A stretch of DNA of 64,000 nt from Nitrospinota bacterium (GCA_027619975.1 JAQCGX010000008.1:8719-72718), one strand, 5' to 3'; shown: positions 9,629 to 52,096, counted from the first letter of the stretch. Notes: generated by a model not told the origin, from the letters alone. A program made the numbers and translations.

Positions 9629-10402
9629 ATGCCACCTGCCCGGCAATTGCCGCGACGTGATTTCTGGGCCATCGTCCTTTCCCTTGGCGGTGTCACCCTG
9701 CTCGCCTGGCTCTACTTGTTGTCCCTTAACGCAAACATGTCCCTATCTATGGATGGTGGCATGGCCGCCATGCAAATGCAGGCCTGGGACTTGCGTTATT
9801 TCCTGATGATGTTCCTGATGTGGGCCATCATGATGATCGGCATGATGTTGCCTTCCGTCACTCCCACGGTTTTGATCTATGCATCAGTAGCTCGGAAAGC
9901 AGCTACGCAGGGAACGCCCGTGGCTCCCACTGGCGCATTTGTATCAGGATATGTCGCCATGTGGGTTATCTTCAGCCTGTTTGCGGTCTTCGCGCAATGG
10001 GGGTTGGAGAAAGCCGTGCTGTTATCCCCCATGATGGTTTCCAATAGCGTGGGTTTAGGCGCCGGGCTCTTGATCGCCGCAGGTATTTATCAATGGCTTC
10101 CCATTAAAGATAAATGCCTCACCCAATGCCGTTCTCCCGTGGACTTTATTTGCAACCATTGGCGCGACGGAACCACAGGGGCCTTTCGAATGGGGCTTTC
10201 CCATGGCGCGTATTGTCTCGGCTGCTGTTGGGTGTTGATGGGCTTGCTGTTCGTTGGTGGCGTGATGAACCTTTTGTGGATTGCTGGCATAACAGTATTC
10301 GTTCTGCTGGAAAAAATTCTGCCTTTGGGCGGAAGGGGTGGGCGCATTTCGGGGCTTCTGATGATCCTCACTGGTGCTGCTCTCGCGTTTATGGGCGGGT
10401 GA
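9629..10402 (+). CDS. DUF2182-family predicted metal-binding membrane protein
   Basis: 257 aa, multi-TM, with Met-rich helices (MQMQAWDLRYFLMMFLMWAIMMIGMMLP). Usual partner of DUF1326. Confidence 0.7.
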   Translation: MPPARQLPRRDFWAIVLSLGGVTLLAWLYLLSLNANMSLSMDGGMAAMQMQAWDLRYFLMMFLMWAIMMIGMMLPSVTPTVLIYASVARKAATQGTPVAPTGAFVSGYVAMWVIFSLFAVFAQWGLEKAVLLSPMMVSNSVGLGAGLLIAAGIYQWLPIKDKCLTQCRSPVDFICNHWRDGTTGAFRMGLSHGAYCLGCCWVLMGLLFVGGVMNLLWIAGITVFVLLEKILPLGGRGGRISGLLMILTGAALAFMGG

Positions 10403-10521
10403 AGCCCGGTATTTTCCCATATTGCCACAACTCTTGTTTCCGTTCTTATATTTTGATACGATGCCTCCTTGCCGATATTTTTATATGTTGATGAATTAAA
10501 AGGCCCAGCGGAGAAGGGATC

Positions 10522-10812
10522 ATGAGTGATAAAAAAGGCTCTTTGTGGTACCGGTTGTGGGATCACAGGACCGAAAAGGACAAAAAATGGATCAAGTCGT
10601 TCATTCCGGTGGTCATGTACACCCTTGCTTTTATGTATGGGGTGATCTATTTGTCCATTCTCAACACGGTGAACCGGTACAATCCGGGGCCGGCGGTCAA
10701 GTCCTGGTTCGGCGGCGACTCGAATGAGGTCATTGAAGCCAAGAACAAGCTAAAGGCCGACATCGAGGAAAGTTACAAGGGCTTGCGCAAACGGGTTGCC
10801 GGAGGTAGATAA
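10522..10812 (+). CDS. Small single-TM protein, unknown function
   Basis: 96-aa ORF with GGAGAAGGG upstream and one hydrophobic helix. Confidence 0.45.
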   Translation: MSDKKGSLWYRLWDHRTEKDKKWIKSFIPVVMYTLAFMYGVIYLSILNTVNRYNPGPAVKSWFGGDSNEVIEAKNKLKADIEESYKGLRKRVAGGR

Positions 10813-14262: not shown

Positions 14263-14437
14263 GGGCATCTCTAAAAATTAGTTTTCACAGAAAATAGACT
14301 CGTGTGCAAAATTTACTTAAATCAGTGGCACGGGCTTTCCAGCCCGTGCGGACAGGCAGGAAAGCCTGTCCTACTAAAACAAAAGACGCTTCTTTGAATT
14401 GGCGATTCGGCGTCGTTGTCAATTTTTAGAGATGCCC
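14263..14437 (-). mobile_element. MITE, TIR family 1, copy with minimal hairpin 2
   Basis: 175 bp with perfect 17-bp TIR GGGCATCTCTAAAAATT. Flanked by TTAT/TTAT. Interior holds GCACGGGC-TTTCCA-GCCCGTGC and GGACAGGC-AGGAAA-GCCTGTCC. Confidence 0.85.
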
Positions 14438-19083: not shown

Positions 19084-19207
19084 ATCCCCCCTGCCCCCTT
19101 CGCAGAAGGGGGAGAAGCGGGTCCCCCCTTTTTCAAAGGGGGTTAGGGGGATTTTGGAACTCCCAGGCCCCCTCTCCCTTTTAGGGAGAGGGTTGGGGTG
19201 AGGGTTT
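19084..19207. repeat. Cluster of GC-rich REP-like hairpins
   Basis: CCCCCTT-CGCAG-AAGGGGG (19094-19112), a CCCCCTTT..AAAGGGGG hairpin, and CCCTCTCCC-TTTTA-GGGAGAGGG. The last 41 nt (19167-19207) are identical to 20961-21001. Confidence 0.8.
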
Positions 19208-20850: not shown

Positions 20851-21001
20851 TTCCCCCTCATCCTAACCTTCTCCCCCAGAGGGGAGAAGGAATTATTTTT
20901 TCCTTCATTCTGTCTATCACCCTGTGGGTGCCTCCCAAAAGAGGAAGAAGTGGGTGGTTTGCCCCCTCTCCCTTTTAGGGAGAGGGTTGGGGTGAGGGTT
21001 T
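20851..21001. repeat. Cluster of GC-rich REP-like hairpins
   Basis: 10-bp stem CCTTCTCCCC-CAGA-GGGGAGAAGG (20867-20890) and CCCTCTCCC-TTTTA-GGGAGAGGG. 20961-21001 is identical to 19167-19207. Confidence 0.8.
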
Positions 21002-21054
21002 CAATAAATAGTTCCAGATAGTTTTTGTTCAATAGGTGAGATATTTGGATTGAA

Positions 21055-21276
21055 GGATATCTCTAAAAATTGACTAAACGCTCCTAGTCGTCAACTTAAG
21101 GAGATGGCTTTGTTTCAGTGGGACAGGCGACCTACCCTTAAAGGTTATACGGAAGTGCGGAATTTAATTCCGCCTTTCCAGCCTGTCCGCACGGGCTGGA
21201 AAGCCCGTGCCACCGATATAAGAAATCCTTGTACAATGTTCGATTTCCTGTAATAAACTAATTTTTAGAGATGCCC
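21055..21276 (+). mobile_element. MITE, TIR family 1, full-length core
   Basis: 222 bp. The right TIR is perfect; the left is degenerate (GGATATCTCTAAAAATT). The core at 21118-21213 holds two 8-bp-stem hairpins. No clear TSD. Confidence 0.8.
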
Positions 21277-21674
21277 TTTAGAAAATACGCCCGTTTGAGT
21301 AATTAATAATTTTCTGCTCATCAATTTCTTTCCCACTTTTCTTCAATATTGCTGTTCCGATCAAGAACCCCAATCACCCCATCAACCTTTTGAATTTATT
21401 GATAATTATAAAGAACTCGCTTGACTTCACCCTTCCAAAATTTTTCGCTTCCGGTCCACCAACTGCATTTTATTAATTTTTATTAATGTTGCGTTAATAA
21501 TTTTTTAATTTTCCTTTTTTATAATGGGGTAATTACTTTCTCCTCCTCTCTTTGGAAGGGGTCCTCTACCATTGGACTCCTTCCTTTCTTTCTATCCAAG
21601 GATGAGAAGGACTGGATTAATAATTAAATCGCCATTCTTTTTGGTACATTTTTAATACTTGGTCAGGTGAGATA

Positions 21675-44418: not shown

Positions 44419-44473
44419 AGGCTGTCATGCAATGATCGAGAAGTTCTTGATTTAAAAATATTTTTTATTTTTT

Positions 44474-44509
44474 AAAGGCTTACGGATTTTTGTCCGTAAG
44501 CCTTTTTTT
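44474..44509 (+). terminator. Rho-independent terminator after the aconitase gene
   Basis: 13-bp stem AAAGGCTTACGGA / TCCGTAAGCCTTT followed by a T-run. Confidence 0.8.
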
Positions 44510-44549
44510 GTGGGAGGAAGTAAACGGGTAAACCACTGAGCAAAAATAA

Positions 44550-44681
44550 GAGCATCTCTAAATATTAGTTTTTACAGAAAATAGAATCGTCTGCAAAAGT
44601 TTCTTAAATCAGTGGCACTAAAACAAAAGAAGCTTCTTTGAATTGGCGATTCGGTGCCGTTGTCAATTTTTAGAAGTGCCC
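44550..44681 (-). mobile_element. MITE, TIR family 1, core-less short form
   Basis: 132 bp. Arms are collinear with 14263-14437, but CAGTGGCAC joins TAAAAC directly. TIRs are slightly degenerate. No clear TSD. Confidence 0.75.
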
Positions 44682-45056
44682 TTCATACTGAAGGATGTAT
44701 TTTTAATTGCGGAAACCGAGTACAAACCAAAGGTTTTACTTTCAATAGCAGTCACAATATTAAAAGGCTTAGGGGTTTTTCCCGTGAGTTTTTTTTGGGG
44801 GGAGAACTTGGAAGATCTCTCAATATAGAAATTCATTTACTTTATTCTGATAATAATGTGGTATTAATGTTAAGAGCAATACGCTAAAGATCCCCTGTCA
44901 CCTAATTACAGCGGGAGGATAGTAATGAGTATACTAGTAAGCAACCCTGAAACCCTCGGAGAGCTTTCCGTAAAAGTTAACGATATTTTCATTTATGGTG
45001 ACACTTAAATCAGGGAACTTATTCCCGCCTTAATCCGAGAATTTCATAATCAGCTC

Positions 45057-45728
45057 ATGAGCGACCCTAAAACCTTGGCCGCTTTTAAATCCCACTCTCA
45101 TTCCCCACCAGTTAGCACAGGGTTTCGCAAACCCCTCCCTTCCAAGCGTGGTCCGCTCCAAATCTTGCACCCAATGGGAAAACGACTCACCCAGAGGACC
45201 CAAATCCTCAAAGTGAAGTGCAAAAATAATTCCTCCTCGACACTCCCCCAAAAAACCAATCCTCAGGAACCATTTGAATCCTTAAAATTTCCCGAAAAAC
45301 GTTTCATGGACGCCCTGCCGGAGTTGATTGGTTTTATTGACAGAGATTTGAAGTATAAATTTAATAATACCAGTTATGAAGAGTGGTTCGGCTTAAAAGT
45401 GGAGAGCCTATACGATACCAAGGTCAGTGAGTTGCTCGGGTCTCATTTTAAAAAATTAAAACCCTTCTTTGAACAGACCTTGGAGGGAGAAATCGTCGAG
45501 ATTACGTCACCCGTGTATTTTAAAGGCACTCAAGGGAGAATGGTTCATTCAAGCTATTTTCCTTATTATGGGGAAAATGACACGGTTGAGGGTTTTTTTG
45601 CTGTCGTTAAAGGGGTGACCAATAAATCTGATTTCGAAAAAGCCAAACTCCAATTCTTGAAACCACCCTTCAAAAAAACCCTAATTCCTAATCACACAAT
45701 TGACAATCATATCGGAAAGCACCTTTAA
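45057..45728 (+). CDS. PAS-domain protein
   Basis: The C-terminal ~120 aa (FMDALPELIGFIDRDLKYKFNN..VEGFFAVVKGVT) look PAS-like. The N-terminal ~90 aa are low complexity, so the start is uncertain. Confidence 0.5.
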   Translation: MSDPKTLAAFKSHSHSPPVSTGFRKPLPSKRGPLQILHPMGKRLTQRTQILKVKCKNNSSSTLPQKTNPQEPFESLKFPEKRFMDALPELIGFIDRDLKYKFNNTSYEEWFGLKVESLYDTKVSELLGSHFKKLKPFFEQTLEGEIVEITSPVYFKGTQGRMVHSSYFPYYGENDTVEGFFAVVKGVTNKSDFEKAKLQFLKPPFKKTLIPNHTIDNHIGKHL

Positions 45729-45890
45729 CAGGTTGCTGAAAAACTATTTTTGGGACCTTAAAATGTTAATTTCAAGCTTACTGTTAACTTAAGAAAACCC
45801 GTAGCACAGGCTGGAAAGGCTGTGCCACTTAAAAGCAAAAACCTGCAAAACTTAACCCGCTGACGGATTTTTCTCTTTTTCAGCAACCTG
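45729..45890 (+). mobile_element. MITE, TIR family 2, deleted core
   Basis: 162 bp with perfect 15-bp TIR CAGGTTGCTGAAAAA. The TTAA/TTAA TSD has its left copy containing the PAS gene stop codon. Confidence 0.85.
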
Positions 45891-45959
45891 TTAAAGCTGG
45901 ATGGGGAAATCTAACTCTGGAGGGACTAATTCATTTCGGGTTAATTTAATCATAAAAAG

Positions 45960-45993
45960 ACAAAAAAAACCGACAGGACCGAAGTCCTGCCGG
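45960..45993 (-). terminator. Rho-independent terminator of cspA
   Basis: On the minus strand, CCGGCAGGAC-TTCG-GTCCTGTCGG followed by eight T. Confidence 0.75.
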
Positions 45994-46010
45994 AGCTTTT
46001 TATTCTCGAA

Positions 46011-46211
46011 TTATTTTGGCATCACGTTTGCCGCCTGCGGCCCTTTCGGCCCGGCATTTTTTTCAAACTCAACCGCTTGCCCTTCTTTTAAAGTTTTGAA
46101 CCCGTCCCCCTGAATCGCCGAAAAATGGACAAAAAAGTCTTCTCCCTCTTCAGACTCAATAAACCCATACCCTTTTTTATCGCTGAACCACTTAACTTTT
46201 CCTCCAGACAT
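46011..46211 (-). CDS. cspA: Cold-shock protein (CSD)
   Basis: 66 aa with [12 protein letters not shown] (RNP1) and FFVHFS (RNP2). Confidence 0.9.
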
Positions 46212-46427
46212 ATCTTAGCTCCTCCCCCTGGAAAACAAATGAACGGCCCACCAAAAAACAACAAAGAATTTTCCAGATATCATGAGTAACGCGTCCCTGT
46301 CAAGCAATTCCTTCGGGCAACCGAATATTCTTCATAAATAACAATTATTTATGAAATTTAAAATTTTCATCTCTCTCGGCTTCTGAAAAACCAATTAATT
46401 TTGTTTTGCGTCCAGCCTCTGCACTAT

Positions 46428-46657
46428 CAGGTTGCTGGAAAACTATTTTTGGAACCTTAAAATGTTAATTTCAAGTTTACTGTTAATTTAAGAAAACCAG
46501 TAGCACAGGCGACCTATCCTTAAAGTCAATGCGGAAGTGCGGAATTTAATTCTGCCTTTCCAGCCTGTGCGCACAGCCTGGAAAGGCTGTGCCACTTAAA
46601 AGCAAAAACCTGCAAAACTTAACTCGCTGACGGATTTTTCTCTTTTTCAGCAACCTG
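46428..46657 (+). mobile_element. MITE, TIR family 2, full-length core
   Basis: 230 bp with TIR CAGGTTGCTGGAAAA / TTTTTCAGCAACCTG and CTAT/CTAT TSD. The core is homologous to the family 1 core. Confidence 0.85.
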
Positions 46658-51874: not shown

Positions 51875-52096
51875 GGGCATCTCTAAAAATAGACTAAATG
51901 TTCCTAATCGTTAATTTAAGGAGATGGCTTTGTTTTAGTGGGACAGGCGACCTACCCTTAAAGGTTATACGGAAGTGCGGAATTAAATTCCGCCTTTCCA
52001 GCCTGTCCGCACGGGCTAGAAAGCCCGTGCCACCGATATAAGAAATTCTTGTGCAATGTTCGATTTCCCGTAATAAACTAATTTTTAGAGGTGCCC
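51875..52096 (+). mobile_element. MITE, TIR family 1, full-length core, between ccmA and ccmB
   Basis: 222 bp with TIRs GGGCATCTCTAAAAAT / one mismatch on the right, and TGTA/TGTA TSD. Near-identical core to 21055-21276. Confidence 0.85.

Follow-up and report, generated by a model that had tools for sequence, protein, structure and literature searches.

A non-coding element of a Nitrospinota bacterium was found to consist of three nested layers, namely an IS5-type MITE, a REP dimer at its centre and a 46-nt insert in the loop of one of the two REPs. As a rule, REPs and MITEs are regarded as distinct classes of small bacterial repeat with different transposition chemistries. The element was flagged in a 64-kb stretch of a Nitrospinota MAG (hereafter the window), where it occupies 222 bp (21055–21276), and we consider it probable that it is a non-autonomous IS5-family MITE whose centre is not IS-derived and consists of a GTAG-type REP dimer, MITE and dimer being carried together.

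Insertion of the small elements and their IS5-family relatives

Six small elements of 132–230 bp and without coding capacity were located by TIR scans of the window, at the positions given in the initial annotation of this DNA (Table 1), and the only ORFs inside the flagged element are of 49 and 32 aa. Four of the six end in GGGCATCTCTAAAAATT (family 1 TIR, 17 bp) and two in CAGGTTGCTGAAAAA (family 2 TIR, 15 bp). The window scan gave eight matches to GGGCATCTCTAAAAATT at ≤3 mismatches, which form four inverted pairs, where 0.34 were expected by chance, and four matches to CAGGTTGCTGAAAAA, which form two inverted pairs, where the expectation was 0.31. The TTAT, TGTA, TTAA and CTAT repeats that had been noted around four of the elements were read at the same places, and together with TGAA and TTTA from other assemblies they make up the 4-bp duplications of six insertions. 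No 4-bp duplication was found at the copy at 44550, the sole insertion without one, which sits in a locally rearranged region.

Table 1. Coordinates of the elements, of the parts of the flagged copy and of related metagenomic units (window positions unless a locus is named; TSD, 4-bp target duplication)
Feature	Position	Strand	Remarks
GGGCATCTCTAAAAATT inverted pairs	14263/14437, 21055/21276, 44550/44681, 51875/52096		
CAGGTTGCTGAAAAA inverted pairs	45729/45890, 46428/46657		
Subfamily 1A copy	14263..14437	-	TSD TTAT; simple REP dimer, 46-nt insert absent
Degenerate 1A copy	44550..44681	-	REP dimer deleted, GTGGCAC left; no TSD
Family 2 copy	45729..45890	+	TSD TTAA; single hairpin, a hybrid left by deletion between its REPs
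Family 2 long copy	46428..46657	+	TSD CTAT; empty site with single CTAT in L256
Subfamily 1B copy	51875..52096	+	TSD TGTA; empty site with single TGTA in L256
TGAA, left target duplication of copy X	21051..21054		right partner absent in the window, present in L001–L006
Left TIR of the flagged MITE	21055..21071	+	GGATATCTCTAAAAATT, 2 mismatches to the consensus
Left arm, flagged copy	21072..21117	+	~68% identity to subfamily 1A; unrelated to family 2
REP-1	21118..21188	+	tag GTGG 21118–21121; loop TTTCCA 21175–80, enlarged by the 46-nt insert
REP-1 stem	21121–28 with 21181–88	+	GGACAGGC pairs with GCCTGTCC
Loop insert in REP-1	21129..21174	+	46 nt, structured
Inner hairpin of the insert	21157–63 with 21167–73	+	GCGGAAT pairs with ATTCCGC
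REP-2	21189..21213	-	inverted; GTG-GCACGGGC-TTTCCA-GCCCGTGC on the minus strand
Right arm, flagged copy	21214..21259	+	
Right TIR of the flagged MITE	21260..21276	-	GGGCATCTCTAAAAATT on the minus strand
TTTA, right target duplication of copy Y	21277..21280		synteny with five assemblies breaks here
83–84-nt metagenomic units	L140 4938–5020, L177 4535–4617, L231 3489–3571, L241 17–100, L245 290–373		

The flagged copy itself has no 4-bp duplication in the window, where it is bordered by TGAA on the left and by TTTA on the right. The duplication is missing because the window element joins two copies. Several assemblies of the same species, with 99.9% identity to the window, were compared: one copy (X) has TGAA on both sides in the other assemblies, and a near-identical second copy (Y) has TTTA on both sides and owns the sequence to the right of 21277 (GCA_027624285.1). 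Synteny of the window with five other same-species assemblies stops exactly at 21277, one base past the element's last. The flagged window element is a fusion of copies X and Y, and the join arose either by recombination or by assembly error. Contigs of the other assemblies also begin, end or change partner within these elements, and GCA_027624285.1 jumps to another neighbourhood (SurE, PNPase) 3 nt past the MITE at 45729–45890 (position 45893), where a JGI contig agrees with the window against it. Such disagreements among assemblies at MITE boundaries reflect either MITE-mediated rearrangements or assembly chimeras. They carry the practical warning that repeats of this kind break or mis-join metagenome assemblies, as the flagged copy exemplifies.

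Transposition of the elements was visible in a 1.25-Mb contig from a related species (L256), syntenic with the window at 85–88% identity, which lacks the elements at 46428 and 51875 and shows CTAT and TGTA only once each at precisely those sites. These empty sites, together with IS5 elements elsewhere that have the same ends and a 4-bp duplication, support the six as true transposed MITEs, the status that the initial annotation had given them. The 1B copies at separate loci (X, 51875 and Y) have ~93% identity or more over arms and core, and every one of them carries its own TSD. As composite copies stand at separate sites with their own duplications, the composite transposes as one unit, and the whole of it was shown to insert in the DDE manner with duplication of 4 bp. 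The 17-bp ends (GGGCAYCTCTAAAAATT) would be recognised by a DDE transposase provided in trans, and the insertions would have been at AT-rich sites where 4 bp were duplicated.

A TIR scan of genomes, one per species, returned at least 120 loci. TIR-1 was found, among the loci listed, in Cyanobacteria, Chlorobi, Fibrobacteres, Ignavibacteria, Lentisphaerae, Bacteroidota, Campylobacterota and several Proteobacteria, and many of the TIR-1 loci listed were TIR pairs of 92–336 bp whose interiors are unrelated and which carry 4-bp duplications. A full-length IS with the same TIRs was recovered from another organism (L259), where an intact element of 1153 bp with the ends GGGCACTTCTAAAAACT/GGGTACTTCTAAAAACT and the TSD TTTA contains overlapping DUF772 and DDE_Tnp_1 ORFs. 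A further full-length element with the same ends (L093) encodes DUF772 and DDE_Tnp_1 fragments that scored 71.8 and 116.2 bits on NF033581, the NCBIfam IS5 model, and at two other loci (L064, L038) IS5-type transposase sequence lies just within the same ends. Homologues are annotated as IS5 family transposases. These loci show a putative parent of the TIR-1 MITEs, an IS5-family element, in other organisms. Within the 64-kb window neither an IS5-family transposase nor a same-ended IS5 element nor a RAYT gene was found, in agreement with the absence of transposase and RAYT genes noted earlier. No parent IS was found for the second TIR family (CAGGTTGCTGAAAAA). The IS5-family element of L093 (919–3348) is interrupted by an IS630-like insertion.

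A different arrangement of the TIR motif was observed in two loci (L054 1–300 and 7078–7585; L013 4600–5800, Gloeomargarita MAG), where it occurs in head-to-tail arrays of 85–240 nt overall with an 85-nt period, each unit containing a GC-rich hairpin, GCAGGGGC-GCA-GCCCCCG, followed by CGTC. The arrays of L054 flank a segment of ~4.4 kb on both sides in inverted orientation. These arrays may be nested or tandem half-MITEs with a CGTC-type REP-like hairpin.

The surroundings of the window elements were also recorded. An aconitase terminator-like hairpin (aaaggcttacgg...ccgtaagccttttttt) occurs twice, flanking the MITE at 44550 (44419–44860), and once in L256. A cold-shock gene on the minus strand (~46000–46210) lies between the two family 2 MITEs (45729–46657), which point the same way and have a TSD apiece; the leader of the gene matched the cspA thermoregulator below threshold (RF01766; 51.5 bits vs a gathering score of 78, E = 6e-12). 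A 223-aa PAS-domain ORF (45057–45728) ends in the TTAA target duplication of the MITE at 45729, and the gene at the same position in L256 encodes a 575-aa PAS-HisKA-HATPase sensor kinase, which may be truncated in the window's species.

The REP dimer and its relatives in metagenomes

The core of the flagged element (21118–21213) reads GTGG-GGACAGGC..GCCTGTCC-GCACGGGC-TGGAAA-GCCCGTGC-CAC, the sequence reported in the initial annotation, and forms a head-to-head dimer in which REP-2 abuts REP-1 with 0 nt between them. Every REP unit in the window bears a GTGG or GTAG tag. A window scan for perfect 8-bp GC-rich hairpins found REP units only within the six elements, and in ~80 kb of the window's species every REP lies inside a MITE and no solo REP is present. 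The predicted single-strand fold (-42.3 kcal/mol, z = -5.8) contains two separate hairpins. Since the stems differ (GGACAGGC vs GCACGGGC) and fold separately, the dimer is a head-to-head heterodimer and not a strict REPIN. The 46-nt insert is common to the copies at 21055 and 51875 (1B) and 46428 (family 2), at an identical position in the REP-1 loop, and was found nowhere outside the window's species among the 260 loci examined.

Two sequence changes were noted within REPs of this species. The REP-2 tag of copy X has changed from GTGG to GTTG in four of the five other assemblies, a change that speaks against the tag being strongly constrained at this copy. In L002 (7632–7633, equivalent to window 14343–14344) one REP stem reads TT in place of CC in its 3' arm; this turns two G-C pairs into G.T on the plus strand and would give A-C mismatches on the other strand.

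The strength of the single-strand fold invites the interpretation that the core is a structured RNA gene or a cis-regulatory RNA (sRNA, terminator or stabiliser) distributed by the MITE, in which case the stem covariation would stem from RNA function. A few G.T pairs would agree with this, given that PMC3733652 takes G.T pairs in REP stems as a hint of transcription. However, no known family matched the core in Rfam: the scan of the window at gathering thresholds gave no family match, and E-value scans over two elements returned noise only, with no family at half its gathering score (best match on the element tpke11, 16.8 bits vs 43). A candidate role of the hairpins as terminators was rejected because no T-run follows them. 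The RNA interpretation is further opposed by the lack of strand bias in the types of stem mismatch, and the link between REPs and RAYTs accounts for tag, stem and dimer without an RNA, leaving an RNA function of the core very improbable.

To search for the REP family in metagenomes, a hairpin pattern was used in which three of the stem pairs were unconstrained in either arm; it gave at least 132 matches in 120 contigs. The REP pattern comprises the tag GT[AG]G, the 8-bp stem G[CG]AC[AG]G[GC]C and the loop TTTCCA. Only 3 of the 132 matches listed lie close to either TIR (L131, L152, L215). On the 3' side the three positions of [CT]AC were conserved in 121, 116 and 121 of 122 among the matches listed, followed by C in 85; on the opposite strand this flank corresponds to G-GT[AG] before the hairpin, and the other side of the hairpin is unconserved. 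A tagged head-to-head partner, often with a different stem, was present within 100 nt for 57 of the 117 matches listed that had enough flank, and 16 of those 57 dimers have the 0-nt spacing seen in the window.

Metagenomic units of 83 nt around REP dimers (GCCTATCCGAAAAA...) were considered as a third TIR type and were rejected as MITEs for want of a duplication. In these 83–84-nt units (Table 1) a REP head-to-head heterodimer is enclosed by the inverted repeat GCCTATCCGAAAAA...TTTTTCGGATAGGC with no clear target duplication, and they look like ordinary extended REPINs. A separate 41-nt exact repeat occurs in the window at 19167–19207 and 20961–21001, one copy lying 54 nt upstream of the flagged MITE; it consists of the hairpin CCCTCTCC-CTTTTAG-GGAGAGGG followed by TTGGGGTGAGGGT, and similar motifs adjoin REPs in the metagenomic loci L154 and L246.

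RAYT genes flanked by GTRG hairpins of this type were found in other organisms. The search began from an approximate E. coli YafM query, used as a lead only, and matches were verified with Pfam and NCBIfam. An ORF in L191 scored 92.5 bits on the NCBIfam model REP_Tyr_transpos (NF047646; cutoff 80) and 26.1 bits on Pfam Y1_Tnp (cutoff 23); its upstream flank carries GGTG-GCACAGGC-TTTCTA-GCCTGTGC, and an inverted REP lies 6 nt past its stop codon. The family of this RAYT has 647 members at E ≤ 1e-10, many of them labelled RayT, and the named members come from Desulfobacterota-like organisms and not from Nitrospinota. Two more RAYTs, on contigs of 344 kb and 130 kb, share a gene neighbourhood and likewise have these REPs on their flanks, so that RAYT genes flanked by REPs of the family were present at three separate loci (L191, L250, L252). 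The REP family was thereby shown to have a predicted cognate HUH tyrosine transposase (RAYT) in other organisms. The RAYTs of L250 and L252 (both 10001–10525), which come from two different organisms, have a MacB-type ABC transporter gene on one side and an outer-membrane efflux (OEP) gene on the other, and this shared site fits vertical inheritance of a single-copy RAYT. Matches of RAYT proteins in the window obtained by tblastn were artefacts; the called ORFs run over the upstream REP. The hairpin sequence variants gave no match in a full-text literature search or in the supplements of PMC3733652, and no link of these REPs to a numbered GTAG family was found in the literature. The initial annotation had described the core as a REP/BIME/REPIN unit; the REP/BIME assignment is upheld by the tag, the recurrence of the hairpin among the metagenomic matches listed, the dimers and the RAYT flanks, whereas a strict REPIN is contradicted by the separate folds and the duplications.

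Stem covariation was general to the REP family. The covariation pattern allowed 64 arm combinations, 8 of which are complementary; 122 of the 132 metagenomic matches listed pair perfectly, with 7 of the 8 complementary types present, and each of the three variable pairs is associated at Fisher p ≤ 1e-11, in copies that are related by descent. The stem types of the window, GCACGGGC, GGACAGGC, GCACAGCC and GCACAGGC, are all among the general REP subfamilies. Both the three compensatory stem differences from the 46428 copy and the G.T pair in ATTCTGC that had been described earlier are present. The compensatory differences match stem subfamilies present throughout the REP family and need not have arisen inside these MITEs. 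Selection on a folded ssDNA or RNA had been put forward to account for them. Pair-5 mismatches among the metagenomic matches listed were 3 A-C vs 2 G-T, without strand bias, so that folding of one particular strand is backed by two anecdotal G.T cases.

Alternatively, compensatory changes could be produced by mechanism and without function, if template switching in quasi-palindromes copied a mutation from one arm to the other. Near-universal perfect pairing (122/132 of the matches listed), even in seemingly passive cargo copies, would be expected from such a process, and recurrent slippage deletions mark the hairpins as hot spots of replication error. We nevertheless find this quite unlikely, as it leaves unexplained both the conserved unpaired tag and loop and the conservation of 1A against 1B at the level of sequence, beyond pairing.

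Core conservation and the origin of the composite

An alignment of eight copies was used to compare their backbones. Subfamilies 1A (14263, 44550) and 1B (21055, 51875 and L065, the last from an alphaproteobacterial MAG) have a common backbone with the dimer at the same place, and their identity is 48/50 (96%) in the core, 32/34 (94%) in the TIRs and 61/90 (68%) in the arms. The arms of 1A/1B, of 1C (the backbone of L215 and L152) and of family 2 are mutually unrelated. Those of families 1 and 2 had been called strongly diverged in the initial annotation; their local alignment was non-significant (z from -1.0 to 3.4), which amounts to no detectable homology, and a descent of the two families from one MITE as diverged copies was rejected for this reason. 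Between families 1 and 2, homology is confined to the stretch from one REP tag to the other. In 45729, L065 and L152 a single hybrid hairpin has resulted from deletion between the 5' arms of the REPs, which are direct repeats, and in one MAG copy Y is missing 24 nt of the dimer.

In the composite that we propose, an ancestral MITE would have acquired the REP dimer as a discrete unit with a tag at either end, likely by RAYT-type single-strand insertion; as an alternative origin, the MITE may have formed around a REP dimer. The dimer would since then have been carried along by DDE transposition, and recurrent deletions between the direct-repeat stem arms would have generated the single hybrid hairpins and the REP-less copy. 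The location of all REPs in MITEs in ~80 kb of the species, against 3/132 of the metagenomic matches listed, fits such hitch-hiking.

A related possibility is that REP dimers already in the chromosome became flanked by IS5-type ends, each MITE family then being built around one such dimer and the arms being captured flanking DNA. It would agree with the many unrelated interiors of TIR-1 MITEs in other phyla and with the mutually unrelated arms of 1A/1B, 1C (L215) and family 2, and REPs are mentioned as IS targets in PMC3733652. This capture would, however, require several independent multi-step events, only 3 of the 132 REP matches listed lie in such MITEs, and no intermediate was seen, for instance a full IS beside a REP dimer, and we regard it as unlikely.

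Core and TIRs are equally conserved, a fact left unexplained by passive carriage. As the core decays less than the arms, some role of the REP dimer would be needed, or else a process that homogenises the copies, and the conservation may have come about through a role in propagation, homogenisation, self-correction of hairpins, selection among copies or RAYT activity. The last of these would apply if the REPIN were active within the MITE, with a RAYT elsewhere in the genome excising, inserting or replacing the MITE-borne REP dimers. Such activity would account for a core that is common to MITEs with unrelated arms and has its boundaries at the tags, for the 46-nt insert at an identical position in two REP-1 stem types and for a core identity of 96% where the arms have 68%, and the REP family does have a RAYT in other organisms. 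It is weakened by the lack of a solo REP outside MITEs in ~80 kb of the species and of a RAYT in the 64-kb window, by a tag mutation that is common in the population at copy X, and by a spread that leaves 4-bp duplications, which is not the HUH mode. We rate an active REPIN as rather unlikely.

Beyond carriage of the dimer by the MITE, it is an unlikely proposition that the REP dimer is not passive and is retained as tightly as the ends that bind the transposase, either being needed by the composite or allowing REPs to persist and to cross phyla without a RAYT of their own, carried by a promiscuous IS5-type MITE. If true, this would represent a functional alliance of HUH-type and DDE-type mobile systems, and the need could be for a folded single strand or a host-factor site that promotes DDE transposition.

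Relation to known repeat systems

GTAG-type REPs with RAYT transposases were reportedly described by Nunvar in 2010. Documented features of GTAG-type REPs are GTAG or GTGG tags, dimers in head-to-head orientation, heterodimers, and subfamilies whose stems differ by complementary changes (Di Nocera et al. 2013, PMC3733652; Bertels & Rainey 2011, PMC3116915). The repeats analysed here resemble GTAG-type REP/BIME systems in the GT[AG]G tag, the 8-bp GC-rich stem, the short loop and the dimers, including heterodimers, as well as in the subfamilies with complementary changes and in a RAYT flanked by inverted REPs (here in other organisms). They differ from GTAG-type REPs in that the dimer lies inside a TIR-bounded element with a 4-bp duplication and in that the loop of one REP is enlarged by a structured insert of 46 nt. 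In common with REPINs (PMC3116915), two inverted REPs make up a small non-autonomous unit; unlike in REPINs, the stems differ and each folds alone with no pairing across the spacer, and the duplications are of DDE type.

NEMIS/Correia, ERIC, RUP and Nezha are listed as bacterial MITEs (PMC3733652). The present elements are like DDE-derived MITEs in their size (130–230 bp), 15–17-bp TIRs, 4-bp TSD, non-coding and multicopy nature and same-ended parent IS, but unlike the usual DDE-derived MITE they have an interior that is a HUH-type module conserved as strongly as the TIRs. Elhai et al., in a 2008 study that PMC3116915 cites, are said to have reported small dispersed repeats nested in cyanobacterial mini-transposons. 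REP dimers in longer palindromes are described in section 7 of PMC3733652 for Anabaena variabilis (GTAG-15) and Halothiobacillus neapolitanus (CGTC-1), and that section gives them without a mechanism. Our elements share with these palindromes, as that section presents them, REP-like units that are regularly centred in a longer inverted-repeat element; they differ from the cases in that section and, so far as is known, from the cyanobacterial mini-transposons, in that duplications, empty sites and a DDE parent are identified here. IS elements that target REPs are also cited in PMC3733652 (its ref. 12), and the cases mentioned there show the same DDE/REP association with reversed topology, the IS lying in the REP there and the dimer in the MITE here.

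The composite offers a route for the spread of REPs, perhaps between phyla, that is independent of RAYT, and suggests a reading for earlier REP dimers inside longer palindromes. Given its TIR-like conservation, the contribution of the core to transposition becomes a directly testable question. Each layer is of a known kind, the outer an IS5-family MITE and the inner a head-to-head heterodimer of GTAG-type REPs from a family that is associated with RAYTs. What is new in comparison with these systems is a documented DDE-mobilised composite with empty sites, a parent IS family, a RAYT family and TIR-like conservation of its core.
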